A program made the translations under genes and the position numbers. Of a stretch of 64,000 bases of DNA, positions 1-32,055 are shown piece by piece; position 1 is the stretch's first letter; the number at the start of each line of letters is the position of its first letter. A model generated the notes under the pieces. That model made no database searches. It was given only the letters and a program-made list of their open reading frames with translations, and was not told the DNA's origin. Source of the DNA: Candidatus Uhrbacteria bacterium RIFCSPLOWO2_01_FULL_47_17 (GTDB lineage: Bacteria > Patescibacteriota > Patescibacteriia > UBA9934 > GWF2-40-263); contig MGEI01000005.1 in NCBI GenBank assembly GCA_001791305.1, positions 210,698 through 274,697 of the forward strand. The letters run 5' to 3'.

Positions 1-587
1 AGCTTGCAAAGATTGCATTTGTTCGTCAGACCAAACCGCTCGGTGACGGTCACGCAATTCTCTCCGCACTCCCATTTGTGGAAAAACACGAACCAGTCGC
101 CATTCTCTTTGGAGATGACATCATCGACGGGAAGGTTCCTGCCCTCAAACAGTTGATCGATGTGTACAATGAATACGAATCACCCGTCATCGCCCTTCAA
201 AAAGTTCCAAAGAAAGATGTCTCGAGCTATGGCGTTATTGGTGGAAAAAAAATGAAAGGTGGCTCCTGGCAAATCGATCGCTTTGTCGAAAAACCCACCG
301 TTGCGGAAGCGCCATCAGATTTGATCGTGATCGGCCGATACATCATCACCCCAGAAGTCATGGAAATGTTGCCGAAAGTTGCTGCGGGAAAAGATGGCGA
401 GATTCGCTTGGCGGACGCATTCGCCAAACATCTCGCAAACGGAAAAGTCCTTTATGGTTGTCAGTTCGATGGCACACGCTATGACTGCGGATCCAAACTC
501 GGATTTGTAAAAGCGCAAATCGAACTTGGACTGAAGCATAAAGACATTGGTTCTGAATTGAAAAAGTATTTGAAAACACTGAAGTGA
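1..587 (+). CDS. galU: UTP--glucose-1-phosphate uridylyltransferase, C-terminal part (5' end lies outside the window)
   Basis: The reading frame is open from base 3. The translation 'LGDGHAILSALPFVEKHEPVAILFGDDIIDGK...GRYIITPEVMEML' matches the conserved GalU core. The ORF track shows the 78..587 portion. Confidence 0.8.
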   Translation, partial: LAKIAFVRQTKPLGDGHAILSALPFVEKHEPVAILFGDDIIDGKVPALKQLIDVYNEYESPVIALQKVPKKDVSSYGVIGGKKMKGGSWQIDRFVEKPTVAEAPSDLIVIGRYIITPEVMEMLPKVAAGKDGEIRLADAFAKHLANGKVLYGCQFDGTRYDCGSKLGFVKAQIELGLKHKDIGSELKKYLKTLK

Positions 588-1975
588 ACTATATGACCAC
601 ACGGAGGAATCTTTCAAAATTGATTGCCGCTTTGTCCCTTGTGACCTTGCTTGGCGCAGGTTGCGGTGGACCGTCTGCTGCACAAATTGCGGCATCAAAA
701 CCCGTCAGTCTTGTTGTCTGGCGCGTGTTTGATTCAGATGACGTCATACAACCCGTGATGGCTGCGTATCAAAAAATTCATCCGAATGTTTCGTTTGAGT
801 ATCGTGAATTGCGTTCAGACGAATTTAAAAACGAACTCTTACGCGCCCTTGCCGAAGGAAACGGTCCGGATATTTTTTCTGTGAATAACGCATGGATTGG
901 GGAATATCAGTCCCTCATGACGCCCCTTCCTTCTTCCCTTAAAATTCCGTATTCAGAAGTGCGTGGAACGATTAAAAAAGAAACCATTTATACCGTAAAA
1001 GAACAGCCAACCATTTCTCTCCGATCCTTAAAAACAGATTTTATTGATGTTGTGGCAACAGACGTGCTCAGACCTTTTCAAGAAAACACCAAAGCCCCTG
1101 TCACAGACCGCATCTTTGGACTTCCGCTTGCGGTTGATAACCTCGCCCTTTACTACAACAAAGATTTGCTGAACGCCGCTGGATTTCCTGAGCCACCAAA
1201 AACCTGGACACAATTTCAAGAACAAACAACCAAATTAACGCGCATTGGAACCGGAGGTGAAATCCTCCAGTCCGGTGCAGCACTTGGAACAAGTAAAAAC
1301 GTGGAACGCGCATCAGACATTCTTTCGCTCCTCATGATGCAAAACGGAACACAAATGACCGATGAACGCGGCGTTGCTACGTTTGCAAACGCAAACCAAG
1401 AAAGACAAATTGTTGGATTAGATGCAGTCAATTTCTACACAGATTTTGCAAACCCAACCAAACAGGTCTACAGCTGGAATGCAAAACAACCAAATTCCTT
1501 TGACGCATTCACCGCTGGAAAAACTGCCTTCTTCTTTGGATATTCCTACCACGCACCGCTCATTCGCGCGGGCGCACCAAAACTTCCGTTTGCGATTGCA
1601 ACGGTGCCACAAATTGAAGGCGGAAAAAATGTTAACTACGCAAACTACTGGATTGAAACCGTTTCAAAAGCCTCTGAAAATCCAGATTTTGCCTGGGACT
1701 TTATCCAATTTGCCGCAAGCGCAGAACAAGTTCCGGCTTACCTCACGGCCGCACGCAAACCGCCTGCTCGTCGTGCCCTCATCAATTCGCAAATGCAGGA
1801 CGAAGATCTTTCCATTTTTGCCTCACAACTTCTCACAGCCAAAAGTTGGTACAAAGGAAAAAATGCATCCGTTGCGGAAGGGGCGCTCCTTGATTTGATC
1901 AACGCGGTTCTTCTTGCGGAAGACGGAAATAAGGCCATGCAGGAAGCACAAAATAAAGTGAATCAGACGCTTTAA
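584..1975 (+). CDS. ABC transporter extracellular solute-binding lipoprotein (probably sugar/oligosaccharide family)
   Basis: 463 aa with an N-terminal lipoprotein signal (LVTLLGAGCGG) and family-1 solute-binding-protein architecture. The start overlaps the galU stop by 4 nt. Confidence 0.7.
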   Translation: MNYMTTRRNLSKLIAALSLVTLLGAGCGGPSAAQIAASKPVSLVVWRVFDSDDVIQPVMAAYQKIHPNVSFEYRELRSDEFKNELLRALAEGNGPDIFSVNNAWIGEYQSLMTPLPSSLKIPYSEVRGTIKKETIYTVKEQPTISLRSLKTDFIDVVATDVLRPFQENTKAPVTDRIFGLPLAVDNLALYYNKDLLNAAGFPEPPKTWTQFQEQTTKLTRIGTGGEILQSGAALGTSKNVERASDILSLLMMQNGTQMTDERGVATFANANQERQIVGLDAVNFYTDFANPTKQVYSWNAKQPNSFDAFTAGKTAFFFGYSYHAPLIRAGAPKLPFAIATVPQIEGGKNVNYANYWIETVSKASENPDFAWDFIQFAASAEQVPAYLTAARKPPARRALINSQMQDEDLSIFASQLLTAKSWYKGKNASVAEGALLDLINAVLLAEDGNKAMQEAQNKVNQTL

Positions 1976-1980
1976 GACAT

Positions 1981-2640
1981 ATGAAAAAACTTGCTACCAT
2001 TTTCCTTACGCTTGTTCTCCTTATCGCCCCGTCGATGAGTTTTGCGGCGTATGTGAGTGAAAACTGTCCGGGTGATCCCCTTTCCACAACCGTGCTCTGT
2101 CCAAAAGAAAGTGTGGGATGGTTTATGCAAGGCATTACAAACGCCTGCGGTAATGCAGGCAACTGCACGCTCAATGATCTCATGACTGTGGTCGCAAACG
2201 TTGGAAATTTTGTGCTCAGAATCATTGGAGCGGTCGTGCTTTTCATGTATGTTCTTGGAGGATTCTGGTATCTTGTGTCTCATGGAGATCCCAAGCTTGT
2301 TGAAAAAGGAAAAACCGCACTGAAAGTTTCAACAACAGGTCTCGTGATTGTGATGTTCGCTTATCTTGGTGTCACAACGCTCAAAAAATACATTACCAAT
2401 CAAGCGTCCACTGGCCTAGGAGGAGTAACCTATGTTGCCTCGTGCAGCGCAAGCACAGAAGGACAGGCGTGTGCGCTCAATAAAAAATGTGCAGGGGGTA
2501 CATGTATTGAACTGTGTACAGTAGATTACAGCGGAACCTATAGTTGTGTGGAAAAAAATGTGGTTGATGCAAGCAAACTCAGTTCCTGTGTTCCAAATAA
2601 GTGCTCTTCCTCTGTTGATACCTTGTGTTGCCCTCCTTAA
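1981..2640 (+). CDS. TrbC/VirB2-like 'T4SS pilin' family membrane protein, paralog 1, with a Cys-rich C-terminal extension
   Basis: Signal peptide, then the conserved core 'GGFWYLVSHGDPKLVEKGKTALKVSTTGLVIVMFAYLGVTTL' shared with four downstream paralogs. The C-terminal ~70 aa contain 14 Cys. Confidence 0.65.
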   Translation: MKKLATIFLTLVLLIAPSMSFAAYVSENCPGDPLSTTVLCPKESVGWFMQGITNACGNAGNCTLNDLMTVVANVGNFVLRIIGAVVLFMYVLGGFWYLVSHGDPKLVEKGKTALKVSTTGLVIVMFAYLGVTTLKKYITNQASTGLGGVTYVASCSASTEGQACALNKKCAGGTCIELCTVDYSGTYSCVEKNVVDASKLSSCVPNKCSSSVDTLCCPP

Positions 2641-2650
2641 ACGTCCCCTT

Positions 2651-2989
2651 ATGAATATCTCCTCGAAAAAAATAGCCATTGCAACATATCTTATCTTTTT
2701 ATTGCCTCTTGTGACGCATGCAGAACTCATTAACCCACTTGGAACCACAAGCATTGAAGGCTTCATTGGCCGCCTCATTAAAGCGATTCTCGGCCTTTCC
2801 GGATCTGTTGCGCTTCTCATGTTTGTTTGGGGAGGGTTTCAATATCTCTGGTCTGGAGGAGATCCAAAGAAAGTCGAGAAAGGAAAAGAGACGCTCAAAA
2901 ATGCCGTGCTTGGAATCGTGATCATCTTCTTTTCCTACACTCTCGTGAACACTCTCATCAAAATTCTCGCAACCGGAGCTGTGACGTAG
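2651..2989 (+). CDS. TrbC/VirB2-like pilin family protein, paralog 2
   Basis: Starts at the ATG at 2651 (MNISSKKIAIATYLIFLLPLVTHA), a signal peptide. Core motif 'WGGFQYLWSGGDPKKVEKGKETLKNAVLGIVIIFFSYTLVNTL'. The track ORF 2546..2989 has a 5' extension that overlaps paralog 1 and was rejected. Confidence 0.65.
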   Translation: MNISSKKIAIATYLIFLLPLVTHAELINPLGTTSIEGFIGRLIKAILGLSGSVALLMFVWGGFQYLWSGGDPKKVEKGKETLKNAVLGIVIIFFSYTLVNTLIKILATGAVT

Positions 2990-3032
2990 TTTTCGTCTCA
3001 CTGTGGATATCTTCCATATCAAAAATTCCAAA

Positions 3033-3062
3033 AAAACGATAAAATAGCTTTATCGTTTTTTC
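3033..3062 (+). terminator. Rho-independent terminator after pilin paralog 2
   Basis: Hairpin AAAAAACGATAAAatagctTTATCGTTTTTT, i.e. stem ACGATAAA/TTTATCGT followed by a T-run. Confidence 0.6.
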
Positions 3063-3121
3063 TATTCAAAAAATTTTTAATCTGTTTGTTCGGGAGTAGA
3101 CCCCTCCCCTACCTCATTTCT

Positions 3122-3568
3122 ATGAAGAAGATCTCACAAAAAATCAGTCACAGCGTCCTTCGTGCTTCTGTCGCTGCGTCTCTTGCTGTTCCAGCCATGC
3201 TCGGATTCGCCGGAAAGGCGTTCGCGGCGGATGGTGCATTAACAGCAGATGAACTGTTTGGAGGTGCTGACCAAGGAGACGGAGCAGATTTTGCTGGAGC
3301 TTCAGGTCTGAGCTCAGGAAACCTTATTGACACTATTTCTTCCATCATTCGTGTCGCTCTCGGATTCCTGGGTGTTATTGCCGTGGTTATCATTCTTCTC
3401 GGAGGATTTAAGTGGATGACTTCTGGCGGAAATGATGAAAAAGTAAAGAAAGCAAAACAACTCATCTTCCAAGGAATTATCGGACTCGTCATTGTCCTTT
3501 CTTCCTACGCCATCGCTTCGTTCGTTATTACATCCATTACAACCGCTACAGCTGGAAGCGCAACGTAA
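3122..3568 (+). CDS. TrbC/VirB2-like pilin family protein, paralog 3
   Basis: Start chosen at MKKISQKISHSVLRASVAASLAVPAMLGFAGKAFA (signal peptide). Core 'GGFKWMTSGGNDEKVKKAKQLIFQGIIGLVIVLSSYAIASFVITSI'. Confidence 0.65.
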   Translation: MKKISQKISHSVLRASVAASLAVPAMLGFAGKAFAADGALTADELFGGADQGDGADFAGASGLSSGNLIDTISSIIRVALGFLGVIAVVIILLGGFKWMTSGGNDEKVKKAKQLIFQGIIGLVIVLSSYAIASFVITSITTATAGSAT

Positions 3569-3691
3569 AAATTTCATTTTTCATTTCCCCATTCTTAAAT
3601 GGGGATTTGCATGAGTGGATCAGCTTGATCCTTTCATGCGAATGCAAATTTTTCGAAGCGGGGTCGGGGACCCCACCCATAACACACGTCT

Positions 3692-4078
3692 ATGAAAAGA
3701 TTCCCGATTTTCCTTAGTGTTCTCTTTCAGGTCTTTGTCCTTTCAAAGTTACCGGCGTTTGCCGGAGCGGCAGATCCTGCCAGCATTTTAACCGGAGGGT
3801 TAAATGACGCGGCAAAAGATTCTGGGTTTAATCAAACCTTGAGTCTACCCGCGCTCATTGGACGCTTCATTGGTGTCATGCTTGGGCTCATGGGAATCAT
3901 TTTTATTGTGTATCTTGTCTGGGCCGGCATCATGTACATGACCGCAGCCGGAGATGACACAAAGGTCAAAAAAGCAAAGCAAATGATCAATCAATCCATC
4001 ATCGGAATCATCATCATGGTTTCTGCCTACGCCATCTCAAGCTTCATCATTTCTCAACTTACAACCGCCGTTAAATAA
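3692..4078 (+). CDS. TrbC/VirB2-like pilin family protein, paralog 4
   Basis: Signal peptide, then core 'AGIMYMTAAGDDTKVKKAKQMINQSIIGIIIMVSAYAISSFIISQL'. Confidence 0.7.
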   Translation: MKRFPIFLSVLFQVFVLSKLPAFAGAADPASILTGGLNDAAKDSGFNQTLSLPALIGRFIGVMLGLMGIIFIVYLVWAGIMYMTAAGDDTKVKKAKQMINQSIIGIIIMVSAYAISSFIISQLTTAVK

Positions 4079-4111
4079 TCCTTTACACACTGAACCCTAA
4101 TCAACATCTGT

Positions 4112-4522
4112 ATGTTAAAAAATAGTTATCTCAAATTCGGCGCAATGATCGGTTCACTTCCAGCTCTCATTCTTCCCCTTTCTGTTTCTGCTGGTGCAAC
4201 CGCAGCGCCAGGTCAAGGTCTTAATGCTTCTCAAGGCTCTCTCACAACTATTAAAGAAGGGGCGGGTATCACTGCAGGCGCATCGGACCTTCCAACCTTA
4301 ATCGGAAGAATCATTGGTGTTCTTCTTGGAGTCATGGGTATTATCTTGGTTATTTACATTGTTCTTGCGGGTATCACGTACATGACGGCAGGAGGAGATG
4401 ACGCAAAGGTCAAGAAAGCAAAGGCGATGATTCAAACCTCTGTTGTTGGTATCATCATCATCGTTGCGGCGTACTCCATTTCCAGTTTCGTTATTTCACA
4501 GATTATTACAGCAACCGCATAA
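4112..4522 (+). CDS. TrbC/VirB2-like pilin family protein, paralog 5
   Basis: Signal peptide, then core 'AGITYMTAGGDDAKVKKAKAMIQTSVVGIIIIVAAYSISSFVISQI'. It is nearly identical to paralog 4 in the core. Confidence 0.7.
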   Translation: MLKNSYLKFGAMIGSLPALILPLSVSAGATAAPGQGLNASQGSLTTIKEGAGITAGASDLPTLIGRIIGVLLGVMGIILVIYIVLAGITYMTAGGDDAKVKKAKAMIQTSVVGIIIIVAAYSISSFVISQIITATA

Positions 4523-4632
4523 ATACTACGGGGAAAACGGGGCGCAAAAACGTCCTGTTTTTTTGTTCCAATGAAAAAGCCCCGACACCCTTACAGCGAT
4601 TTGCTGTTTTGGATGCCGAGGCAAGGTTGAGA

Positions 4633-5490
4633 TCAGTACTGAGGATCACCCGTTCGAGCGCTGATCGACAGGCGCCCCGAATGGTTGCTGACCGAGTTGT
4701 CGTGGAAGATGGTCCGCCTTGGATTCCCCCAGACGATCTGGAGCGGAAACCCGGGAACCACGATGGTGGAAACTGGAGTCAGGTAGACAAGTTCGATCAC
4801 GTCTCCTTGCTGGTAGCCAAGGAAGATCGTGTCGACTTCAGACGGGTCAATTCCCTTTGCAGGATCTTGGTCCGCCTTCTTGTCGCCGTTCAGGTCCGTA
4901 TAGAAATCCACGAACCGAACTCCTGCGGGTCCTGGGCCTTTGTGTGCGATGGCAAGCAACTGGCCGTTCTTGCGAACAACCACACGCTGCATTCCCGCAC
5001 GAGCAAACCACTTGAGCCCACCCGAGTTGATCGAGTGAAGTTCCGCATGAAACGGAGTCCCACCAAACATGTTCCAGGTTGCGGCTGCGTAGTTGCCGAC
5101 AGGCTCGATGACCTGGGAAGGAGCGTCCATCATGTACAGAGGCATTGCGGCCGCCGGCATGATTGGCGTAACTTCACCCGGAGGCAGAACCGCTTTGGGG
5201 GCGGATTCGAGCGCCTTCAGGGACTTCGACACCCGAGCGAGTTCGGCTTCGAACTTGTCGCTCTTTTTCGCCTTGGCCTTGAGGACGAGGACGTCCACTT
5301 CGAGGAAGCACCTCTCTTGCGCAAGTGCGACCACGAGTTTGTCGGTCGTGGGAACGATCGCTGGATTGTACTTCGTCACGCAGACCGACTTGTCGGCTGC
5401 GATCTCGGCGTCCGTCGGAATCGCTGCCACTTCGGCGAGCGCGATCGAAGACACGAGGGACAGGACGAGGGAAACGATGATCTTGAACAT
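4633..5490 (-). CDS. Secreted hypothetical protein (signal peptide), in a GC-rich segment
   Basis: 285 aa, N-terminus MFKIIVSLVLSLVSSIALAEVAA. Local GC is visibly higher than the flanks. The long plus-strand ORFs here are shadows. Confidence 0.55.
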   Translation of the reverse strand: MFKIIVSLVLSLVSSIALAEVAAIPTDAEIAADKSVCVTKYNPAIVPTTDKLVVALAQERCFLEVDVLVLKAKAKKSDKFEAELARVSKSLKALESAPKAVLPPGEVTPIMPAAAMPLYMMDAPSQVIEPVGNYAAATWNMFGGTPFHAELHSINSGGLKWFARAGMQRVVVRKNGQLLAIAHKGPGPAGVRFVDFYTDLNGDKKADQDPAKGIDPSEVDTIFLGYQQGDVIELVYLTPVSTIVVPGFPLQIVWGNPRRTIFHDNSVSNHSGRLSISARTGDPQY

Positions 5491-5559
5491 GGGAACTCCC
5501 GTGGTCCGAGTCGGACCGATTGTCTGTTTCAGACCGACTCGGAACCGTTCCTTGTCGAT

Positions 5560-6123
5560 CTATTTTCCGTACACCTTCTTGCGCACCTCTTTGAGGTTTT
5601 GCGCAGCGCATGCAGCGACTTCACCGTCTGTGCCAGGCGGACGTCCGCTCGGACACGCTGTCAGACCTCCGCCTGCCACTTGCGCGGCTTGCGGTTGGCT
5701 TAGCAAGGAAACCGGTACCTCACCGAGTCGCGGAAGTTGTCCCGGCACGTAGCCAAGGCTTGCCGCTTCTGCTGCGAGGATCGCAGGCGAGACGCCGTAT
5801 GGATTGGCGCCGTACGTTCCGTACGCGCCGTAGCCGTAGGTGTACCCAGCCTGGACATCAGAACGAACCGCGTCCTGGCCGAGCGTCGCCGGCATGCCTT
5901 TCGCGATCGCCGCTTGCGCGACGTCGCCAGACTGCAAGGTCTGCACACGCCGCGTTTCCGCATCGAGCAGGTTCCGAGCTCCGCCCGAGGTGCCACTGAA
6001 GTTCACCTCGAGCTTGGTCGTCCGAGCCGGCTTTCCCGCTTGCGCAGGCTCCGTCTCAACGATCGAGGTTTTCATCTGGGCGCAACTTGCGCACAGGAGC
6101 AAACTGAGTGCCAAGAATTTCAT
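5560..6123 (-). CDS. Gly/Tyr-rich secreted lipoprotein-like hypothetical protein
   Basis: 187 aa with signal and lipobox-like N-terminus MKFLALSLLLCASCAQ, and a low-complexity YTYGYGAYGTYGANPYG region. GC-rich. Confidence 0.5.
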   Translation of the reverse strand: MKFLALSLLLCASCAQMKTSIVETEPAQAGKPARTTKLEVNFSGTSGGARNLLDAETRRVQTLQSGDVAQAAIAKGMPATLGQDAVRSDVQAGYTYGYGAYGTYGANPYGVSPAILAAEAASLGYVPGQLPRLGEVPVSLLSQPQAAQVAGGGLTACPSGRPPGTDGEVAACAAQNLKEVRKKVYGK

Positions 6124-6379
6124 GGCCGTCCTTGTGCCGACTCGTCACACGACTGTCGGTTCTGAGAATGTGTTTTCCGATCCTTTCGGAAAAACAGAGA
6201 TTCGTTAAAGGCACGAAGAAGCTTTGAACCGTTGATTTCAAGCCTTTTTCGCATCTTCAACCATTCTTTGTAACGGCTTACTATACCATAAAAATGCCAT
6301 TTTGTCAAGGTATTATGGCCTTTTTCTTGACTTTTTGGCTGTTTTTTCGTGTAATGACAAAGCCATTTGGAGGCATTTC

Positions 6380-6772
6380 ATGAATGACGAGCCGTTTGGG
6401 CATCTCACGCACCTCAAGCAATTTCGTGACGAAGAAAAATCCTATCAGGAGCTTTTGCGAACCGCCCGTCGTATTGTTCGCGAGCGACAATTCTCTGGCA
6501 CGTTCCTTGCAGAAGATCTTTTGGCACGCGACCGTATATTTGGGTTGCTCAAAAAGCAAAACTTTAAAAACATGGATGAAACGCCCGTGAAATGGGAACG
6601 TCTCAAAGCCTTGTACGAAAAGCCGCAGACAGACGATCAAAAAAATTTAGAAACACTGTTGCTCATTCGATCCTTTTTGTTTTATGCCGTGGAACGTCAT
6701 GATGTCTATCGAACACCACTTGTTGGATCTCCACATGCGGTTCAGGGCTTTGCCTTCAGTAAAACCGGTTAA
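6380..6772 (+). CDS. Hypothetical protein
   Basis: Start moved to the ATG at 6380, preceded by GGAGG 6 nt upstream. A TTGACT..TGTAAT promoter-like pair lies at 6318-6350. No recognisable domain. Confidence 0.5.
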   Translation: MNDEPFGHLTHLKQFRDEEKSYQELLRTARRIVRERQFSGTFLAEDLLARDRIFGLLKKQNFKNMDETPVKWERLKALYEKPQTDDQKNLETLLLIRSFLFYAVERHDVYRTPLVGSPHAVQGFAFSKTG

Positions 6773-6877
6773 ACAAATAGCACATCGTCTTCCTGCCACC
6801 CTTCGCTGAAGCTTCGGGTGGCTTTTCTTTTTCCAGAAAATAAAAAATCGAAGGGGGTTAGCCTTCGACAGAGAATC

Positions 6878-9313
6878 TCACTCACACTCAAGGTCTCTTC
6901 GCCACTCATACGAGTAGCCCGCGCATTCAGATGCACTGATTTTTTGACTCCTTCGACGCGGCTGTGTCGCACGCGTTCCAGAAACCGGAACTGGCGCAAT
7001 CACTTGTGCGCTCACGGGAGCAGACGGAGCGGGAGGCTGTACGGTTGGCTGAGGAGCCGGGGCCGTCATCTGGTTGATGAGCTTCGCAGGCAGACTCGCC
7101 GGAGCTTCCGCCGCATAATGTGCGTTGATGTCGGACTCAATCCACGGCCATGAGGCGAGCCCAAGGACGAGGATAAGGGCGACACTGCGCAACCACCAGT
7201 TACGTCGATAATCAATGCTTTTCGGCATTCCGGTTTCGACACTGGTTTCTCGACTCACTTCTTCCATTCGTCGGACAGCCTTCCAAAGAAGGAACCCGGC
7301 CCCCGAAAAGATGAGGATCGATTGCACAATGCGTGATCCCATAATCCATCCGACCACATCACTGAAGGACTTGCCCAACCAGTGAGCTGCCAACGCTCCA
7401 ATTATGGCTACAAAAACAATGGTCGAAAGAGCACCGAATAGACGCGTAGTCTTGCGCGCGCGCTGACGAGCTTCCTCACCGAACTCATACCCAGACAATC
7501 CCATCTGGGATGCAAGGGCGAAGAACGTGGGGACGCAAATCAGCAAGCGAAAGATGAGCGGTGTTTTCAACGAAAGGAGAACGCTGAAAATACCCACATG
7601 AATGAAAAGAAACATGATCAGGATGCGTCCCTTATTGACCAGCCAGTCTTTGTGAACGTTCGGAAAGAACCGTGTCACAATCGACAGCAGGCCTTGAATA
7701 GCCGTGAAGGAAAACAGTTCGATGCACGCGAGAATTCCGCCACCTGCGACAAGCGCAACGGCGAATTCATGCGGCAGGAGTCGTTCCATGACGTCGGCCG
7801 TGATAAGGATGGCTGCGGGAATTCCCGTTGTGATTCCGAAAACCACGAACAGAAACCGAGTCCATCCGGAGAAATTCCACGCAAGCGCAAGGCAAAGCAG
7901 TGGAAGCCCACCGTAGGCGATATCGATGTTCGAGAACGTGAGGGGGTGATGCAAGCTCACCGCAAACGCGCCGAAAAGCACAAGTCCGAGGAACATGGCG
8001 AACAACGCCGTGAATCCAATGAAGCTCGCAAGAGCGTATTTGCCAATGGTTTGCGCAAACACCCCGACAGCTTTTTCGACTCGCACACCAGTGGCGAGCG
8101 CGGTACCAGTTACAGGATCCTGTGCGTTATCGAATGCATTCTTTGCGTGTTCAAACGCAAGACGCATCCTGTTCTCGATGGTGAGCGTAGAACCGAGCCA
8201 CATCTGAAGATGTGTTTGGATCGCCGCGTACTCATCGTCACTCAGGCCATTCGCCTGATTCGCGTCTGTAACGAACATGTCCCCAAGATGATTGATTTTC
8301 TCAGGGCTCTGAGCGATGTCGTTTGCGAGATCGATGATGAGCTTTTGTTCAAGCGGCGTCCGTGTCGCAACTTTCTGCGTCAGGAGCTTCATGAGCAAAA
8401 GGCCCTTCTCACTCACTTCGACTTTCTTTGGCGCCAACGGATCCTTCAGCACAAGCGCTGCTTTCGCGAGCGCGAGCAATTCGGGATCCATCGGATAGAC
8501 GGACGCGATGCGCGTCACGGCAATGGCAAGCGGAACGAGGGTTCCTTTGTGAATCTTTCTCGGAACGAGCACCCGCCGCGTGCGCGGCTGGTTGTTGTTC
8601 TGATTCTGATTCCTGCCACGACCGCCCTGTTGGTCGTTTGGTAGCGGTTCAACGGGAACCTCTTCCCAATGTTCATCGTGTGCAGCTCGCCAATCGTGAG
8701 TAAACTTCCGACCATTGACGCCAGCCAAAATGACGGCGCCGTCTGTGTCGTACTGCAGTTTGCCGTCCTCACCCCATTCCGGAAAAAGCAGACCGTACTT
8801 TACCCAGTAATCGACTCCATTCGTGGATTCGACGTCATAGGCAGAGTCGATCGCACCTGGCTTGTGTACGACCGTCGTAGGTGTCTCTGCAGGATCCGTA
8901 ATCACACTATTCACCGTCTCATGCACCTTCTGTTCCCAAGTATCCGCCGCACCTTCCGCAGCACCAACGATGAGGGCGGGCGCAGCGTGTTTCAACACGT
9001 AACGCACCTGTTTCATGATGTTGCCTTGATCATCGGGGAGAAGACCGTCAAAGTCGATATGTTGGAGGAGCTTTGCGAGAAGCGTTCCACAGCCGACCAG
9101 TGTGAGCCCAAGGGCACGCGGTCCAAGCAGCGCATGAACCTTCAAAAGGTATTCATTGCTGCGCAGCCGAATGATGGCCCTTGCCACAATATTCTTTGTA
9201 CTATTGCCTTTGGCAATTTCTTCGCGAAGAAGCCTGGAGAGCTCCTGGTGAACATAGCGCTCACCAACCTCTGCCCCCATTTCTCCCAAGATACCCTGAA
9301 CATCGAAAGCCAT
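6878..9313 (-). CDS. Large polytopic membrane protein with a ~330-aa N-terminal soluble domain (811 aa). A VirB6/TrbL-like role is speculative.
   Basis: Several clear TM helices in the C-terminal half (e.g. FIGFTALFAMFLGLVLFGAFAV, ILIMFLFIHVGIFSVLLSL) and a Pro/Ala/Gln-rich tail. GC-rich. Downstream of the pilin array. Confidence 0.5.
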   Translation of the reverse strand: MAFDVQGILGEMGAEVGERYVHQELSRLLREEIAKGNSTKNIVARAIIRLRSNEYLLKVHALLGPRALGLTLVGCGTLLAKLLQHIDFDGLLPDDQGNIMKQVRYVLKHAAPALIVGAAEGAADTWEQKVHETVNSVITDPAETPTTVVHKPGAIDSAYDVESTNGVDYWVKYGLLFPEWGEDGKLQYDTDGAVILAGVNGRKFTHDWRAAHDEHWEEVPVEPLPNDQQGGRGRNQNQNNNQPRTRRVLVPRKIHKGTLVPLAIAVTRIASVYPMDPELLALAKAALVLKDPLAPKKVEVSEKGLLLMKLLTQKVATRTPLEQKLIIDLANDIAQSPEKINHLGDMFVTDANQANGLSDDEYAAIQTHLQMWLGSTLTIENRMRLAFEHAKNAFDNAQDPVTGTALATGVRVEKAVGVFAQTIGKYALASFIGFTALFAMFLGLVLFGAFAVSLHHPLTFSNIDIAYGGLPLLCLALAWNFSGWTRFLFVVFGITTGIPAAILITADVMERLLPHEFAVALVAGGGILACIELFSFTAIQGLLSIVTRFFPNVHKDWLVNKGRILIMFLFIHVGIFSVLLSLKTPLIFRLLICVPTFFALASQMGLSGYEFGEEARQRARKTTRLFGALSTIVFVAIIGALAAHWLGKSFSDVVGWIMGSRIVQSILIFSGAGFLLWKAVRRMEEVSRETSVETGMPKSIDYRRNWWLRSVALILVLGLASWPWIESDINAHYAAEAPASLPAKLINQMTAPAPQPTVQPPAPSAPVSAQVIAPVPVSGTRATQPRRRSQKISASECAGYSYEWRRDLECE

Positions 9314-20229: not shown

Positions 20230-20335
20230 GATCTGTATAACTACTTCCCTGCGGCTGAACTTAGCAAAATTTTAGGGAGATTGCCTGTGGATGTTGCCTG
20301 TGGAAACGTGTGTGTGGAAATGTGGATATAAATTC
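20230..20335. promoter_or_regulatory. DnaA-box cluster in the dnaA-dnaN intergenic region (oriC part 2)
   Basis: Several TGTGGA(T/A) motifs: GGCTGTGGATGA, CCTGTGGATGT, CCTGTGGAAAC, GTGTGGAAATGTGGATATAAA. Confidence 0.6.
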
Positions 20336-20423
20336 CGTTTGAAGAACCCTGTTTCTACCCGCACGTTTTACACAGGTTTATCAAGTGGGTTATCGAGAGG
20401 ATATTCACAAGGATAACTTGTGA

Positions 20424-21839
20424 CTACGCTGTGTATAAACGTTGTTTGATGAGTTCAAGGTCGTGTTGCAACTTTTCATCTTCTGTTAAACACTCCGAAA
20501 TTTTCTCATACGCATGCATAGCAGTTGTGTGATCACGCCCACCGAGTTCGTTTCCGATAGACGGATAACTCGATTTCATTTCTTCACGCATGAGGTACAT
20601 GATGATTTGGCGTGGAAACGCGAGTTTTTTCTCACGACTTTTGCCAAGTAAGTCTTCAATACGGATATCAAAGTAGATAGATACCGTATGAATAAGTTGT
20701 TTTGGAGTAACATTTTTTTTGAGGGATGAGGGCTGGAAGCTTGTGAGGATTGGCTTGACGGTGTCGAGTGTTGGTCGAACGTTTTTGAATTGATGAAAGG
20801 CAATAACCTTGTTTAGAGCTCCTTCGAGTTCTCGCACGTTTGTTTGAACAACGGATGCGATGTGATTCAAGATGTCATGTTCAATTTGATAAACTTTTTC
20901 ACGACATTTTGATTCAAGAATGGCAACGCGCGTTTCAAAGTCTGGGGATCCAACATCAGCCATCATTCCTTGTTCCAGACGAGAGGAGAGTCGAGCTTCG
21001 AGGGAAGGAATAGCTTTTGGAGGGCGATCTGAAGAGAAAACAAGTTGTTTGTTATTTTGGAAGAGTTGGTTAAACGTATGAAAAAATTCTTCCTGTGTGC
21101 TTTCTTTCCCGCCCAAAAACTGAATATCGTCGATAAGGAGCGTATCAACCATGCGGTAGCGATTTTTAAAATCGTTCATTTTTCCTGTGCGAAGCGCAGA
21201 AACATAGTCGTTTGTGAATCTTTCACACGTGATGTAGAGAATGCGAAGGTTTGGATTTTTTCGAAGTAACTCATTTCCGATTGCCTGCAACAAATGGGTT
21301 TTTCCGAGTCCCACACCACCATAAATATAGAGTGGGTTATAAACGCCTCCTGGTTGGCTCGCGACCGCTTGAGCTGCTGCATGTGCAAGCTCATTTTGTT
21401 TTCCAACGATAAACGTTTCAAAACAGTATTTTCCGTTTAAAGAAAACTCCCCCGTTCTATTTTCTTGAACGTCTGAAGTATGTTGCTCAACAAAAAAGTC
21501 TTTCGGTGTTTGTACAGGCTGTTCTTGTTGGTGAAAAACAGGTTGTGGTTCCGGTTTTCCTGCAACAGGAACCATTTGTGCAGGAGCTTGGCGTGTTTCA
21601 ACACGAAACGTGATGTGCTTGATGTTTCCACCCGTGTGTTCCAAGACAGATTTTACGATTTCACGCGCGTGTTTTTTTTCAAGCCAGTTCTGCGTGAACA
21701 TGTTTGGGACACCAACAATAAGAGAGTGTTCTGAAATTTCAGAAATGAATGTACTTTTGAACCAAGTTGTAAAATTGGCTTTGCTGAGCGATAACTCAAG
21801 TTCCCCAAGAACAGCTTGCCAAAGTTCGATCGTGTTCAT
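20424..21839 (-). CDS. dnaA: Chromosomal replication initiator protein DnaA
   Basis: 471 aa, Walker A 'GGVGLGKTHLLQAIG', and C-terminal DNA-binding domain (HTTAMHAYEKI). Confidence 0.95.
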   Translation of the reverse strand: MNTIELWQAVLGELELSLSKANFTTWFKSTFISEISEHSLIVGVPNMFTQNWLEKKHAREIVKSVLEHTGGNIKHITFRVETRQAPAQMVPVAGKPEPQPVFHQQEQPVQTPKDFFVEQHTSDVQENRTGEFSLNGKYCFETFIVGKQNELAHAAAQAVASQPGGVYNPLYIYGGVGLGKTHLLQAIGNELLRKNPNLRILYITCERFTNDYVSALRTGKMNDFKNRYRMVDTLLIDDIQFLGGKESTQEEFFHTFNQLFQNNKQLVFSSDRPPKAIPSLEARLSSRLEQGMMADVGSPDFETRVAILESKCREKVYQIEHDILNHIASVVQTNVRELEGALNKVIAFHQFKNVRPTLDTVKPILTSFQPSSLKKNVTPKQLIHTVSIYFDIRIEDLLGKSREKKLAFPRQIIMYLMREEMKSSYPSIGNELGGRDHTTAMHAYEKISECLTEDEKLQHDLELIKQRLYTA

Positions 21840-22125
21840 AACGACAATTTATGAGAAAAAACGATTCAAATACACGAGGTTGAATATAGGATGTGGGTAA
21901 GTGTAACCATTTATCCACAAGTGGGCAAGTGTGAGAATTGTTCATAAAGCTCTTGATAAGTTGTGGATAGCATGTTAGTATCTGGGGGCATGAGTAGAAA
22001 GTAGAGAGCAGAAAGTAGAAAGGGTAGAAAACAGAAAAAAACTGTTCCAAATCCATCTTCTTGTCTTTTTTTCTCTTCCCCCCTTTCTACTTTCTACTTT
22101 ACTACTTTCTACTACCCCAACCCCT
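21840..22125. promoter_or_regulatory. oriC part 1: DnaA boxes plus a long inverted repeat upstream of dnaA and rpmH
   Basis: TTATCCACA at 21911-21919 and an inverted TGTGGATAG at ~21963-21970. Arms GTAGAAAGTAGA... (21995-22030) and CTTTCTACTTTCTAC... (22084-22117) are reverse complements of each other. Confidence 0.65.
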
Positions 22126-22278
22126 ATGCCAAAGCGCACCCATCAACCAAAGAAGCTTAAACGCGTCAAAACCCATGGTTTCCTTAAGCGAATGAGCACA
22201 AAAAACGGCCGAGAAGTGATTGCTCGTCGTCGCGCAAAAGGCCGCAAACGCCTTGCTCCAAAAGCTACCAGTAAATAA
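22126..22278 (+). CDS. rpmH: 50S ribosomal protein L34
   Basis: [50 protein letters not shown] (50 aa). Below the ORF-track size cutoff, found by reading the sequence. Confidence 0.9.
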
Positions 22279-22284
22279 ACCTCT

Positions 22285-22623
22285 GTGTTTCCTTCCGTAA
22301 ATCGATTACGAAATGAAAAAGATATCAAAACACTCTTCGCAAAAGGCAGGAGTGTTTTTGATGTGACGCTCGGAATCCGATTCGCCCCAAATAACCTCCC
22401 AGTTACTCGATTCACGGTCGTTGTTGGAACAAAGATCTCAAAACGCGCGGTCGTTCGAAACAAGATTAAGCGAAGAATCCGAGGAATTGTCGAAAAACGT
22501 CTTCTCGAGATAAAACCCGGGTTTGATGTGCTGTTTCTCGTAAAGAAAGAAACGATTGATCAAACGCACAAACAACTTGTTGAGCAGATTGAGCGTATGT
22601 TTAAACGTGCAAAACTCGTATGA
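22285..22623 (+). CDS. rnpA: Ribonuclease P protein component
   Basis: 112 aa, basic, '[17 protein letters not shown]' RNR-like motif. Sits in the rpmH-rnpA-yidD order. Confidence 0.85.
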
Positions 22624-22880
22624 AGCTCCGATTTTGGATTGTTCCAAGCCTCGCTGTCCTTTTATTGATCCGTGTCTATCAAAAGACCTTGTCTTTTGAT
22701 CACGGATACATGAAATTCTTTTACCCAGACGGATATTGCCGTTTTTACCCAACCTGCTCGGAGTACGGATACAGGGCGATCGAGAAACATGGGCTTATAA
22801 AAGGAGGTTGGCTCACCGTTCGCCGCATTCTCCGATGTAATCCGTTTAATAAGGGAGGGATCGATGAGGTTCCTAAATAA
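22620..22880 (+). CDS. yidD: Membrane protein insertion efficiency factor YidD
   Basis: '[45 protein letters not shown]'. Confidence 0.85.
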
Positions 22881-22955
22881 AACATCGCTCAATTGAGCGA
22901 TGTTTTTAGTTATCCCCATTCGAAATACATATGGGGATAACGTGTTGATACTGGG

Positions 22956-25463: not shown

Positions 25464-27464
25464 TTAAGACTTTTTGACCATGAGCACGGTGCTCACCTGA
25501 GCGGCTTTCTTAAACATATCATCCGGCGTGCTCGGCCCCTGGGTTTCATCCAAGAGGACGTGTGCGACACGCTGTGAGATTTCACGCAAGGCAGCATGGC
25601 GGCGAACCGCATCTGTGTATCCGTCAAAGAGTGTGTGACCCAAGTTGAGCGTGATGATGGTGTAGCCGTCTCCGCGCTCAATCCAGCTCGTTTTGGCATT
25701 TGCGTCCGGCGTGCCACGCATCGTCGTTGAGGAGAGTTCGAACAAGTGATCTTCAACAATGAATTGCCGATCTGTGGTCTCCCCGGTTTTCGGTGATTCA
25801 CCTTCATCCTGTTCTCGAATGCGAATGGTACAGTTTGCCGTGTCACTCGGATTGTTTTTGTTTACAACCGTGATGTCGAAGTCTCCCGCTTTGTCGCTCG
25901 AGAGAATTTCAGCTTCAGTTACATCTTTCGAAATCTTGATTTCCCCTCCCCATTTCTGGTAGGTCCATACAAGATCCGCTCCGGCGGGCACTTCATTAAG
26001 TCGGACAAATCGACGGTCATGGAATCCCATCCGAACGGTTGGTTTCCCAAACCGCATCGGAATCGTTGCGAAGATGTTGATCGTGATGATGGCGCTTGGC
26101 GCATCCTTCACGTCCCCCATCATACTCACACGCAGCGTGTGCCCTTCACCAATATCACGGGCTGTGTAGGTCACGCGTGTTCCGGTGTTGGTATCCAAAC
26201 TGCCGCCACTTGCCTTTGCATCCCAATGGTATGGACGCCCCGGTCGCGGATCCTTGATTTCGAACACGTAGCTACGTCCAGGAACCAGGTCCACGCAATG
26301 GCGATTCAGAGCGATTTCGATCACCTTTTGCTTGATCGGTGCTTCGCCCGTTGCTTCGTGAATATTTCGACACACATCTGCAAGCAGAGTTGCGTCATCG
26401 GTCGTCACGATTTCTTCTGAGCGCATCCCGAGTTCGTTCTCGACGAGCGGAACGATTTCAAGACGCAGGAACTTGAGGAGCGCTTCACAGAAGTGCTCAT
26501 CTTCAAGCATGTTCGCGTTGAATTCCTTGCGGCTATTCACAGCGAACTTATTTGCCTTCGGAATGTCGATGCTGCCCACAACGTACGGGTGACGCAACAC
26601 GATGTCAATTTCTCGCGCAAGTGTGCGATACCGCGGGTCGTGTGTGAACGCACGCGCAAACGTGGTCCAAGAACACACGGGGCCCATCGCACCCATCATC
26701 ACGAAATCTGCGCTGCGGTCACTTTGCTGAACCACATACAGATTCCACTCAACGTCTCCAAGATGTTTCACGGGCGTTGTGGTACGTCCCTCAATCGGCT
26801 TGCCTTTCAGCTCGCGCGGCTTGAGTTCGAATGTCTGTACTCCGCCCGTCTCATCCACGGTTTCCACACGAATCTTTCGTGCAATGTGTGGGGAGAGTTT
26901 TTCGGCGAGGCCTTCAATCAATCGTTCCGCTGTCCGTTGTGCCTGCTGCGACTTGGTGCCAACCGTGAGGTCGCGCCAGGTCACAATCGTTCCACTCGTT
27001 TTCAGCAGATGATCGAATGAGAGCTTCTTTGCGGTCCACGCGAGCGTTGTATTTCGTTCAAACCACGCGTCATGCATGCGTTCTTTTGTGAGAACGATTT
27101 CAAACGCTGTCTGATCTGCAGCTTTTGTGATCGTGTGACACTCAACCGCGTGGTTGATGAAGCCGATGCGTCCGGTACCGTTGCGGCCCTTTTTCGAATC
27201 GTCTTCACGTGCAGCGCTGTCACACAAATTGGTATAGGCTTCCCGACCGCGCTCATCCATGCCCTGTCCGTTGTCGCGGAATTGAACACAGCTGATTTCA
27301 CGTTTCGGATCCGTGTAGAAACGAATAGTGAATTCCGTCGCTCCCCAGTCGAAGGCGTTTTCGGCGATTTGCACCACCGCATCCGCAAATCCTGTGAACC
27401 CATCGGTCAACTTGTCGAGAATCGATTTGTCAACGCGATTTCGCCTTACATGTGGTACTGCCAT
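25464..27464 (-). CDS. GHKL-superfamily (Bergerat-fold) ATPase-domain protein with a ~500-aa uncharacterised C-terminal region
   Basis: The N-terminus carries all three Bergerat motifs: 'IAENAFDWGATE' (ExxNAxD N-box), 'FRDNGQGMD' (DxGxG G1-box) and 'KKGRNGTGRIGF' (GxxGxG G2-box). Start is immediately adjacent to the stop of the upstream gene (27464/27465), with GGAGG embedded in that gene's end. Confidence 0.65.
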   Translation of the reverse strand: MAVPHVRRNRVDKSILDKLTDGFTGFADAVVQIAENAFDWGATEFTIRFYTDPKREISCVQFRDNGQGMDERGREAYTNLCDSAAREDDSKKGRNGTGRIGFINHAVECHTITKAADQTAFEIVLTKERMHDAWFERNTTLAWTAKKLSFDHLLKTSGTIVTWRDLTVGTKSQQAQRTAERLIEGLAEKLSPHIARKIRVETVDETGGVQTFELKPRELKGKPIEGRTTTPVKHLGDVEWNLYVVQQSDRSADFVMMGAMGPVCSWTTFARAFTHDPRYRTLAREIDIVLRHPYVVGSIDIPKANKFAVNSRKEFNANMLEDEHFCEALLKFLRLEIVPLVENELGMRSEEIVTTDDATLLADVCRNIHEATGEAPIKQKVIEIALNRHCVDLVPGRSYVFEIKDPRPGRPYHWDAKASGGSLDTNTGTRVTYTARDIGEGHTLRVSMMGDVKDAPSAIITINIFATIPMRFGKPTVRMGFHDRRFVRLNEVPAGADLVWTYQKWGGEIKISKDVTEAEILSSDKAGDFDITVVNKNNPSDTANCTIRIREQDEGESPKTGETTDRQFIVEDHLFELSSTTMRGTPDANAKTSWIERGDGYTIITLNLGHTLFDGYTDAVRRHAALREISQRVAHVLLDETQGPSTPDDMFKKAAQVSTVLMVKKS

Positions 27465-28916
27465 TTACTTTCCTCCATTGGATTTGTTGAATTCTGACGC
27501 GACTCCGACCATGGAGCGTGTCCCCTGAACAATCTCCCACGCCGCTTTTGAGCCCATCAAGTGATGGAGCCCTTCATGTGCAACGAAGAGTTCTGCAAGT
27601 TCTGGACCAAGAATCGGCGTGATCGTTTTCCGAATGAGATCCGGATTCAGCTCACTGAGCGCAACCAGCACTTTCCGCAGATGGACGATCGCGGTTCGAA
27701 CGTCTTCAATCTGTTCCATTGTGACACGTTCATCTTTTCGAAGGTGCCACGTTTTCGGATCAAGACAGTGCTCCACGCCACCAATCACGGAACCAATCGG
27801 TTCATAGATCGGAGTTACGGATGGTGTCGCAACCGTTTCTGTTCGTGCCTTGAGTCGTGCGACCAAAGCTTCGAGTCCATCGATCACAACATCTTCGAAC
27901 GAATCTTTGGATGGCGTGATTGGTTTTGGTTCAGAAACGACGGGGGTCGCAACCGGAGTCGCAACAGGTTCCACTTTCTTTTGGACAGAAGGCTTCGCTT
28001 TTGATTGTTTTGCGACAGGCTTCACATCCATGAGGTCTTTGAGAGGGACTTCCACTTCCCAAATTCCCGCATCTTCCTTTTTGCGATACGTCTTGCGGTG
28101 CTCGTCAAACGTTTCCAAGAGCGCGGGATACGATCGCTCGACAAGCGCGCGCAGAATTCCTTCGACGGTTTCCGGATAACAACTTGTCTTTTCTTTTTCA
28201 GGCTTCCATTCAAGGAGTCGAGAAATGGTGTTCTCTTTGATTCCCGTAAGGCTTTCAATTTTGACAGCCGTGTGACCGGGATACCGATGAAGAAATTCTT
28301 GGAGCGCGGATGCAAAATCCGTGACTCCAGGAAAAAATTCTTGCGAGTCTCCGCCAAGGATGGCTCGACACATCAAGATGAACTGTGCATCTTCAAGACA
28401 CGAGATCTTGAGAAAGCCTCGCATGAGATTGCTCAAGAGGATTTTCAACATCTCCACACCGGGTTTGTTGATTCCTCTGTTCCAACCACTCAACGTCCCT
28501 GACGGAACACCCATCTGAAGCGCGAGGTAGAAATTTCCTCCGTACTCTTTGATGATTTTGCGCAAGCGATTCACGACGTCTTCACGGTGAATATCACGAT
28601 CGAAATCAATGTGTTCACGCAGATCAGGACACTCGTTCCACAACTGACGTTTTGCTTCACAAACCATCCAGGCGTCGATATCAACACCGGTTGTTTCGAG
28701 AATGGATTGAAGACCGGTTGTGACAAGATCAATCGTTGGTGTGTTTGCAAGCCAGGCAGGAAGACTCTTTCTGCCTCGAATGCCGTGTTTTTTGAACACA
28801 GCCTGCGCTTCTTCAACGGTTTTGAGTCCGTTGTGCTGCATCCACATTTCCCAAAGCACGGCGAGGGTGATGTCTTTTCCCCAAACGGCTGTTGGAAGTT
28901 TCTTGAGCTTTTCCAT
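27465..28916 (-). CDS. Hypothetical protein with two XRE-like helix-turn-helix segments, first gene of the GHKL operon
   Basis: 'FYLALQMGVPSGTLSGWNRGINKPGVEMLKILL' and 'AVKIESLTGIKENTISRLLEWKPEK' resemble Cro/C1-type HTH. A Pro/Val/Ala/Thr-rich linker (VEPVATPVATPVVSEPKPITP) follows. Confidence 0.5.
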   Translation of the reverse strand: MEKLKKLPTAVWGKDITLAVLWEMWMQHNGLKTVEEAQAVFKKHGIRGRKSLPAWLANTPTIDLVTTGLQSILETTGVDIDAWMVCEAKRQLWNECPDLREHIDFDRDIHREDVVNRLRKIIKEYGGNFYLALQMGVPSGTLSGWNRGINKPGVEMLKILLSNLMRGFLKISCLEDAQFILMCRAILGGDSQEFFPGVTDFASALQEFLHRYPGHTAVKIESLTGIKENTISRLLEWKPEKEKTSCYPETVEGILRALVERSYPALLETFDEHRKTYRKKEDAGIWEVEVPLKDLMDVKPVAKQSKAKPSVQKKVEPVATPVATPVVSEPKPITPSKDSFEDVVIDGLEALVARLKARTETVATPSVTPIYEPIGSVIGGVEHCLDPKTWHLRKDERVTMEQIEDVRTAIVHLRKVLVALSELNPDLIRKTITPILGPELAELFVAHEGLHHLMGSKAAWEIVQGTRSMVGVASEFNKSNGGK

Positions 28917-28928
28917 GGATCCTCCGGC

Positions 28929-28965
28929 TGAAAAGAACCGTTCTGAAATACGGCCATTCCGTACA
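28929..28965. promoter_or_regulatory. Nested palindrome (candidate operator) in the divergent promoter region
   Basis: TTCTGAAATACGGccattCCGTAcATTTCAGAA, a near-perfect 13-14 bp inverted repeat immediately upstream of the 27465..28916 gene start. A TTGACA..TACATT promoter-like pair at ~29015-29045 faces the opposite gene. Confidence 0.45.
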
Positions 28966-29105
28966 TTTCAGAAGGGGTCAACCTATCAATTTAAGCCTGT
29001 TATGTCAAGGTTCTATTGACAGATCCGGCTCGCGTGGTACATTTTTACATCCTTTTTTCGAATGACGAAGAAAGGTGTTTGTTCAGACAACCAAGGAGTG
29101 TCTCA

Positions 29106-30298: not shown

Positions 30299-30384
30299 GA
30301 AATACTTACATCGGAATGAACCCCGGTGTTTTTTTATTGAAATTTTTGTATGAAAAAACCACCCGTAGCTTTAGCGAAGGGTGG

Positions 30385-31923: not shown

Positions 31924-32055
31924 GTTAAAGCCCCATTTCCGACACTTGCCGGAGCAACGAGCATATCAGATAAAGGCGTTTTGTCAAGAATTCGTTGACA
32001 AAGTTCCCCTATTTTGTTAGTTTTCTTTCTCCGCTTCTGTGGAGAAAGGACACAC

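Follow-up and report, generated by a model that had tools for sequence, protein, structure and literature searches.

A conserved five-member array of predicted VirB2/TrbC-type pilins beside an orphan solute-binding lipoprotein gene in Candidatus Uhrbacteria

What does a row of pilin genes build when no secretion machinery is encoded beside it? This question is raised by a 64-kb stretch of DNA (hereafter the window, in which all positions are counted unless another locus is named) from Candidatus Uhrbacteria of Rifle-aquifer groundwater, belonging to Patescibacteria, class ABY1 (GTDB). Five adjacent plus-strand genes spanning 1981–4522, here called P1 to P5, encode proteins of the pilin family of type IV secretion systems (T4SS). 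A preliminary description had proposed that they serve a surface or competence-like appendage rather than a conjugation system, and that their N-terminal regions diversify under selection for surface variation. On balance, we lean towards another answer, drawn from sequence analysis, in which the array would be the pilus-like or conduit part of a patescibacterial T4SS, with P1–P5 forming a mixed assembly and the ATPase genes located elsewhere.

All five proteins exceed the Pfam gathering score of PF18895 (T4SS_pilin, 26.6 bits), namely P1 (1981–2640, plus strand as are the others; 219 aa) with 31.9 bits, P2 (2651–2989, 112 aa) with 59.2 bits, P3 (3122–3568, 148 aa) with 36.2 bits, P4 (3692–4078, 128 aa) with 35.8 bits and P5 (4112–4522, 136 aa) with 34.3 bits. 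For P2 we follow the called gene, which starts with the ATG at 2651; the list of open reading frames (ORFs) has an earlier GTG start. P2 alone also exceeds the gathering score of PF04956 (TrbC/VirB2, 27.9 bits), reaching 41 bits, while P3 and P4 stay below that threshold at about 18 bits, and the precomputed Pfam matches agree. The best NCBIfam model for each of the five is NF045849, whose cutoff of 40 bits is passed by P4 alone (42.4 bits). Each protein is thus placed by a curated profile in PF18895 or the TrbC/VirB2 clan, and judged in this way P1–P5 are members of the VirB2/TrbC-type “T4SS pilin” family. The preliminary description had named them as five adjacent paralogs of this kind and had made the claim depend on a significant profile match, so that on this point it was right. 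It was also right that the family is abundant in Patescibacteria, as can be seen from the published arrays discussed below and from an exhaustive profile search that returned 83,286 cluster representatives of the family at E<=1e-3.

The proteins share one plan. Every paralog has an N-terminal hydrophobic leader with an A-x-A-type end, where cleavage is predicted, followed by two hydrophobic helices joined by a loop that reads G-G-D/N-x-x-K-V-x-K-A/G-K in the alignment, which confirms the leader and common core already noticed in each protein. A cleavable leader, two membrane helices and a short lysine-rich loop would together place both mature termini outward and the loop in the cytoplasm. The AlphaFold model of P3, built with 69 sequences, is a helical hairpin with helices at 68–100 and 105–144 and a predicted local distance difference test score (pLDDT) above 90.

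Are these five proteins recent, interchangeable copies? The pairwise identity between paralogs is 23–48%, and P4 and P5, previously called close duplicates, share 48% identity with a synonymous divergence (dS) of about 2.2, so that this wording was overstated; P1 and P2 share 44%, as do P3 and P4. When the five-paralog alignment was scanned over GTDB species genomes, 80 loci were obtained, nearly all of them arrays of 3–10 pilin genes. In at least 13 Uhrbacteria loci the best match of every array gene is the gene at the corresponding position of the window, in the order P1-P2-P3-P4-P5, and the extra copies in relatives are of the P4/P5 type only, their count varying from 2 to 4 between species. 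The core of P3 is 81% identical (13 orthologue sets), against 54–60% for the other cores and about 62% for the neighbouring solute-binding protein (SBP). The mature N-terminal regions of P1–P3 keep 50–64% identity among orthologues, whereas those of P4 and P5 keep 22%, with cores at 54% (P4) and 60% (P5). Measured against the closest relative, locus L006, the ratio of nonsynonymous to synonymous divergence (dN/dS) is 0.11–0.27 for the pilins and 0.03–0.04 for NifS, NifU and GalU, with dS of about 1–1.6, near saturation, in that comparison; it is far below 1 in every pilin gene and in most regions. Across 14 kb, five assemblies taken from separate samples are 99.99–100% identical. By these comparisons the paralogs are ancient, have collinear orthologues across Uhrbacteria and are under purifying selection. 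The pattern fits five specialised subunits and not a variation cassette, with only the exposed parts of P4 and P5 turning over fast, and we infer that P1–P5 are non-interchangeable paralogs with distinct roles within one assembly. The proposal that N-terminal diversification reflects selection for surface variation is therefore not borne out by old lineages in fixed order with conserved N-terminal regions in P1–P3; the alignment and dN/dS comparison that had been suggested as its check points to purifying selection, and what survives of it is the fast change of the P4 and P5 N-terminal regions alone. Farther away, the scores of P1–P5 against individual Saccharibacteria pilins are too close to assign one-to-one orthology. 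In L006 the P4 orthologue (L006:9980–10279) has lost its leader and N-terminal region through a deletion or frameshift, either as a pseudogene or by assembly error.

Features specific to single paralogs give some indication of what these roles could be. Four cysteines precede helix 1 of P1 and ten lie in its 85-aa C-terminal tail, and its orthologues keep the four-cysteine N-terminal region (50% identity) together with a cysteine-patterned tail of variable length and 20% identity; it could be a minor subunit or one that bears an adhesin. P2, the shortest paralog and the nearest to classical TrbC/VirB2, carries at its mature N-terminus, just after the predicted leader cleavage site, an L-x-N-P-L motif (residues 25–30, window 2723–2740) in which L26, N28 and P29 are invariant in an alignment of 17 orthologues, and which may act as a signal for processing or recognition. 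N-P-L-G is also present in the pilin that comes first in an array of Candidatus Andersenbacteria (L091:8649–9254). P3 has a long leader of 35 aa, and of its 1314 homologues the best 120 are P3-type proteins of about 135–168 aa; as the most conserved paralog it is probably the main structural subunit, for which we regard it as the candidate.

The regulatory sequences around P3 set it apart from its neighbours. Upstream of the predicted P3 promoter, at 3002–3011 (plus strand), lies the motif TGTGGATATC (reverse complement ATATCCACA), which we regard as a putative DnaA box from its likeness to the canonical box TTATCCACA. The 13 Uhrbacteria loci align without gaps upstream of P3, and in all of them this motif, TGTGGATAWC, is found at a fixed 38 nt before a TAAAAT/TAGAAT box; it is the reverse complement of the canonical DnaA box, with 8–9 of 9 positions matching. 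In the window the hexamer is the −10-like TAAAAT at 3040–3045 (plus strand), conserved in position in the 13 loci. This motif also occurs in a cluster around dnaA in the window, with 18 matches (at most one mismatch) against 5.4 ± 2.3 in shuffled sequences. P3 would then have its own promoter at 3040–3045, and the arrangement suggests that its transcription responds to DnaA. A hairpin at 3031–3062 was considered as a terminator after P2 and rejected, as it overlaps the −10-like box and is found only in the window and L006.

Between P3 and P4 a two-hairpin RNA element is predicted at 3584–3652 (plus strand), in which a G/C-rich hairpin of 7 bp is immediately followed by one of 18 bp. RNAalifold gives 25 pairs, of which 17–18 show compensatory changes, and 92% of cells are paired compared to 38–51% in slid controls, a value reached by none of 500 shuffles. 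The covariance model finds one copy per locus in the 13 loci and no other strong match in 530 kb, and an Rfam scan of 1–6500 gave no match to this element or any other. In most relatives the P4 start codon lies 5–15 nt after the element. We would read it as a terminator or as a site of processing or translation control. As regards regulation, the setting apart of a main-subunit gene by an RNA structure recalls the papBA processing of chaperone-usher pilus operons; there is no homology between the two, and the likeness to processing or termination is by analogy only. The array is closed by a hairpin at 4531–4564 (plus strand; 14-bp stem, ViennaRNA fold −16.4 kcal/mol) followed by a U7 run, which is a putative terminator, and the next genes converge from the opposite strand. 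Three expression units can thus be proposed, galU-sbp-P1-P2, P3 alone and P4-P5, an organisation consistent with P3 as the main subunit.

The first of these units brings in genes that are not pilins. The order of the block is galU, sbp, P1, P2, P3, P4, P5. The 3′ part of galU at 78–587 (plus strand) encodes a UTP-glucose-1-phosphate uridylyltransferase (NTP_transferase; PF00483 is found in the identical loci L001–L005), and is followed with a 4-nt overlap (gap of −4 nt) by the gene of a solute-binding lipoprotein at 584–1975 (plus strand), with an SBP_bac_1 Pfam score of 110.7 bits and the lipobox L-G-A-G-C, whose stop codon lies 5 nt before the P1 start. Its relatives in the PDB are maltose, trehalose and oligosaccharide binding proteins. 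The same arrangement of galU, a family-1 SBP lipoprotein and then the array is present in 25 related loci (L006–L040) of Uhr-, Buchanan-, Jackson- and Komeilibacteria and relatives, where an SBP homologue directly precedes the first pilin gene and galU orthologues of 59–92% identity lie upstream of the SBP gene. Counting the window, 22 of 26 loci have at most 40 nt between SBP and first pilin, and in 10 the two overlap by 4 nt; the coupling is found in Andersenbacteria (L091) as well. No ABC-ATPase-like ORF lies within 10 kb in the SBP-array loci, nor an ABC permease or ATPase near the SBP of the window. It is probable that this orphan sugar-type SBP lipoprotein works with the pilin structure at the cell surface.

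The absence of T4SS ATPases from the neighbourhood was the starting point for the idea of an appendage independent of T4SS. Pfam scans of the large ORFs of the window found no VirB4, VirD4 or VirB11, and a VirB4 profile made from 24 Saccharibacteria VirB4 proteins had no match in the 64-kb window at E<=10, so that the absence itself holds for the window; apart from chance matches, a Walker-A motif was present only in DnaA, a ComM-like Mg-chelatase and a 207-aa ORF. Profiles that we built for the PrgI-like, 1048-aa and 358-aa proteins of Saccharibacteria T4SS loci matched nothing in the window and nothing in the ABY1-type loci. Saccharibacteria arrays adjoin VirB4 (P-loop_TraG/AAA_10) and PrgI; in the 25 related ABY1-type loci no VirB4 lies within 10 kb of the array. 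Among the genomes of the same architecture that are included in the published table, VirB4 is encoded elsewhere in 4 of 5. An array unlinked from virB4 is therefore the ordinary layout of ABY1, and since ABY1 arrays are regularly unlinked, a missing nearby ATPase is by itself no argument for a function free of T4SS. The step from missing ATPases to a competence-like or T4SS-independent appendage does not follow for the same reason, and a competence-like use finds neither a type IV prepilin motif in the proteins nor com genes beside the array. Concerning a use free of T4SS, the absence from the window is no indicator, and it is three VirB4-negative assemblies with this array, described below, that leave room for it.

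Further information on how neighbouring members could be packed comes from fused proteins. The top matches of the exhaustive search are single polypeptides with 6–17 back-to-back pilin hairpins and no internal leaders, up to 1775 aa long. In Andersenbacteria L091 the SBP gene is followed by three pilin genes, a six-hairpin fused protein whose hairpins best match P4/P5, and three more pilin genes; a second fused protein also sits within an array of single pilin genes. The 1775-aa version comes from a locus of archaeal appearance in which T4SS genes are absent within 10 kb, and one cluster of fused proteins includes an Altiarchaeales protein. The fused multi-hairpin proteins are P0147–P0180 of our protein set, and their loci are L089, L090 and L091. 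They are without mention in the Patescibacteria T4SS literature that we compared. If both termini of a hairpin face outward, fusions of 6–17 hairpins are topologically possible, and such fusions would argue for side-by-side packing of neighbours in an array. In other Patescibacteria, proteins of 650–1660 aa (L024:7485–9449, L026:6780–9899 and L041:9881–14863) have one pilin hairpin as their N-terminal part, followed in the L024 protein by a Big_5 domain; this hairpin looks like the membrane anchor of a surface protein. A hairpin serving as the N-terminal anchor of Big_5 surface proteins would have its C-terminus outward, which would also mean outward display of the cysteine-rich tail of P1; the window also has a gene for a DsbA-like oxidoreductase.

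How far is this array already known? In a search of 3,035 Patescibacteria genomes with PF18895 and PF04956, Quinonero-Coronel et al. 2025 found 441 arrays of 2–11 VirB2-like genes in 383 assemblies, with a mean identity of 25% and a maximum of 54%, and a pilin gene within about 20 genes of virB4 in 1135 of 1948 assemblies, which was not a strict requirement; relaxases were rare, and T4SS genes were often near dnaA in Patescibacteria (PMC12102498). Transposon sequencing by Wang et al. 2023 had shown that a series of pilins within the T4SS cluster of Southlakia epibionticum is essential (PMC10633639). PF18895 is moreover the dominant Pfam domain of freshwater-specific structure clusters. Five pilin genes in tandem in a patescibacterium agree with the published definition of an array, which asks for at least two pilin genes that are adjacent or have one gene between them; their 23–48% identity fits its divergence criterion, and the array belongs to this already published class; proximity to virB4 is lacking, both in the 64-kb window and in the related ABY1-type loci. 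Compared to the 441 catalogued arrays and to the six essential pilins of Ca. Southlakia epibionticum ML1 (SEML1_0006–0019), our array shares the Pfam family, the tandem of 2–11 genes, the low paralog identity, the chromosomal site near the origin and the lack of a relaxase context, but here, as in ABY1 generally, it lies away from virB4/prgI, in an operon with galU and an orphan SBP, and its source assemblies are listed as VirB4-negative. As far as we searched, the five collinear paralog lineages, the putative P3 promoter with its DnaA-box-like motif and the P3–P4 RNA are new with respect to the papers on such arrays.

Outside Patescibacteria, VirB2/TrbC/TraA (PF04956) of Gram-negative T4SS share the leader, the two hydrophobic helices and the basic loop, and P2 is above the TrbC cutoff; here, however, the host is monoderm, the mature proteins, extended at the N- or C-terminus, are longer (88–197 aa), five paralogs take the place of one, and no VirB5, TraF-type cyclase or ATPase is nearby. 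The Mbov_0395 family (NF045849) of Mycoplasma integrative and conjugative elements is likewise a small hairpin protein of a monoderm, from an MPF-FATA-type system, yet it is an equivalog represented by a single gene within a mobile conjugative element, whereas the five paralogs here are chromosomal, without conjugation genes, and four of them fall below its cutoff. Tandem divergent virB2 copies in a host-dependent bacterium are also known from Anaplasma, Bartonella and Rickettsia, where they are read as antigenic or host-range variants; the fixed order, the purifying selection and the paralog-specific motifs of our array would instead point to distinct roles.

Taken together, we would picture P1–P5 as assembling side by side into one mixed envelope structure, because their order is conserved, selection is purifying and fusions of 6–17 hairpins occur elsewhere. 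P3 would be the main subunit, expressed from its own promoter with a DnaA-box-like motif, on account of its most conserved core, this promoter motif and the RNA element that follows it, and the structured RNA would probably uncouple P3 expression from that of P4–P5. P1 would show disulfide-rich domains outside the cell, P2 would contribute its conserved N-terminal motif, and P4 and P5 would be exposed subunits that change fast and vary in copy number. On the model of the essential pilins in the T4SS cluster of Saccharibacteria, the structure would serve host contact or exchange and not conjugation, with its ATPase genes encoded elsewhere in the genome as is usual in ABY1. Several points weigh against this reading. 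No solved pilin was reached in the PDB by sequence and profile searches, whether these started from the five paralogs, from 69 P3-type sequences or from 17 P2 orthologues, and a Foldseek search of the P3 model against the PDB found only generic helical hairpins, all at E>1 and the best being ATP synthase subunit c (E=1.1), a result that discriminates little, as the helical hairpin is too simple a fold and resembles many things. The window, the 6 kb preceding it and the 10 kb that follow yielded no T4SS component, so that VirB4, VirB6 and VirB3/PrgI are all missing near the array in the window and its flanks. Three assemblies with the exact array, and likewise several sibling bins (about 1.0 Mb, 46–48% GC), are VirB4-negative in the published table (PMC12102498), although the assemblies are draft metagenome bins in which this absence is not proven. 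A 2025 review states that no pilus has yet been seen in any Patescibacterium (PMC12857230). Finally, the roles of P1–P5, the promoter, the link to DnaA and the function of the RNA are all read from sequence conservation.

A serious alternative, which we hold to be possible but unlikely, is that the five proteins form a membrane oligomer independent of T4SS, such as a ring, pore or docking platform loosely like the c-subunit rings of ATPases, which together with the orphan SBP would serve uptake or attachment without a VirB4-driven pilus. Besides the three VirB4-negative assemblies, it is favoured by the coupling of SBP and first pilin across ABY1 and Andersenbacteria, where stop and start codons overlap and an ABC partner is lacking nearby, by the fused proteins, which as concatemers of 6–17 hairpins would be polytopic membrane proteins, and by the archaeal-looking locus of the 1775-aa version, which is free of T4SS genes over 10 kb. 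On the other hand, the draft bins cannot prove that VirB4 is missing, most relatives of the same architecture have it, the Saccharibacteria arrays are part of the T4SS cluster and share its essentiality, and concatenated subunits with both termini outward could still suit a pilus lattice.

An explanation by surface variation, in which interchangeable exposed variants under positive selection would escape recognition by phage or host, seems improbable to us. The published discussion does liken such arrays to those of Anaplasma and Bartonella (PMC12102498), and the 22% identity of the P4/P5 N-terminal regions against 54–60% in the core, the 2 to 4 copies of this type and the apparently disrupted P4 orthologue of L006 would all agree with it; but five old lineages in fixed order, each with conserved features of its own, with dN/dS well under 1 in every gene and most regions, near-identity of five assemblies over 14 kb and no repeats or recombination cassettes seen, are not what such a cassette would leave. 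That the genes are of phage origin or encode an unrelated membrane protein, such as a filamentous-phage coat, a holin or a type IV/competence pilin, is hardly credible. The one hint in this direction is a weak match of P1 to the Inovirus coat protein B (E=0.021, 15.3 bits against a cutoff of 23.5), whereas no PHROGs family matches at E<=0.01, no relative was found among 2.9 million viral contigs, and the genes sit in a syntenic chromosomal setting of housekeeping genes. With their two helices and ordinary leaders of the A-x-A type, P1–P5 lack the G/F-T-L-x-E prepilin motif and have no type IV pilus match in Pfam. Phage-coat, holin and type IV pilin identities are ruled out by the family matches above curated cutoffs.

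Patescibacteria make up a large share of uncultured bacteria, and T4SS with pilin arrays belong to the small number of systems whose need for their life on a host has been shown. The locus leaves this general picture unchanged; its local wiring, with a sugar-binding protein, a putative separate promoter and a candidate RNA switch, is new detail and not a new system. What is added is the ABY1-specific SBP operon, the fixed subunit set with a distinct probable main subunit and its predicted regulation, the fusions, and the apparent absence of VirB4 in a population. These give handles on what patescibacterial pilins build, namely a fixed set of five subunits, a candidate main subunit P3 with putative promoter and covarying RNA, an obligatory partner gene for an orphan sugar-binding lipoprotein, fused multi-hairpin proteins, and a VirB4-undetected population where independence from T4SS could be tested. 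Perhaps, and this is a doubtful suggestion, the ABY1 and Andersenbacteria hairpins constitute an autonomous, VirB4-independent heteromeric envelope module which, with its orphan SBP, would act as an uptake or attachment organelle and in which synthesis of the main subunit would be tied to DnaA and hence to the replication state. If this is true, the VirB4-negative Uhrbacteria population would be a natural test case.

The window carries dnaA (20424–21839), dnaN and genes for a class A penicillin-binding protein, NifS/NifU, trigger factor, an H+-pyrophosphatase, polynucleotide phosphorylase, DNA polymerase I, a DsbA-like oxidoreductase and three tRNAs; the locus is chromosomal and origin-proximal, with the array about 16 kb from dnaA. 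An identical locus is found in GCA_001791565.1, GCA_001790985.1, a 91.6-kb JGI contig and ENA assemblies, and an identical array in Ca. Uhrbacteria RIFCSPLOWO2_12_FULL_47_9 with its sibling bins (class ABY1). A P1 protein of exactly the same sequence is encoded on 24 contigs, the longest of 568,899 bp, and is also present in GCA_001790825.1.

Downstream of the array, the minus-strand genes at 4633–9313 are fast-evolving neighbours whose link to it is uncertain, their synteny being kept in close Uhrbacteria only. They encode secreted proteins of 285 and 187 aa, GC-rich (55%), and an 811-aa protein with about 6–10 membrane helices, and a 130-aa ORF lies on the plus strand (6380–6772). The identities of the proteins in L006 are 55%, 47% and 42%, compared to 93% for NifS, and Pfam, NCBIfam, PHROGs and PADLOC gave no match for any of them. 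The 811-aa protein was considered as VirB6-like and rejected, with 8 homologues, no Pfam match and an hhalign probability of at most 1% against the Saccharibacteria T4SS neighbours; its AlphaFold model, with a pLDDT of 50.6, was left out of the fold search.

Elsewhere in the window, DnaA boxes flank dnaA on both sides (20321–22941), which probably marks oriC, and the minimum of cumulative GC skew lies at about 26–30 kb. A six-gene block at 25464–33739, adjoining the origin region, has a GC content above its surroundings and no Pfam family save a GHKL-type ATPase domain in a 666-aa protein; it may be a mobile or defence island, and PADLOC and NCBIfam scans of this block (25–34 kb) gave nothing useful. 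Two further perfect DnaA boxes are located at 40313 and 40344 (40313–40353), between a 430-aa ORF and a DksA/TraR-type gene. A XerC/D-type integrase gene is found near a tRNA-Arg, and a PemK-family toxin gene lies near the right end of the window (47753–48676, 49107–49183 and 61819–62304, respectively).

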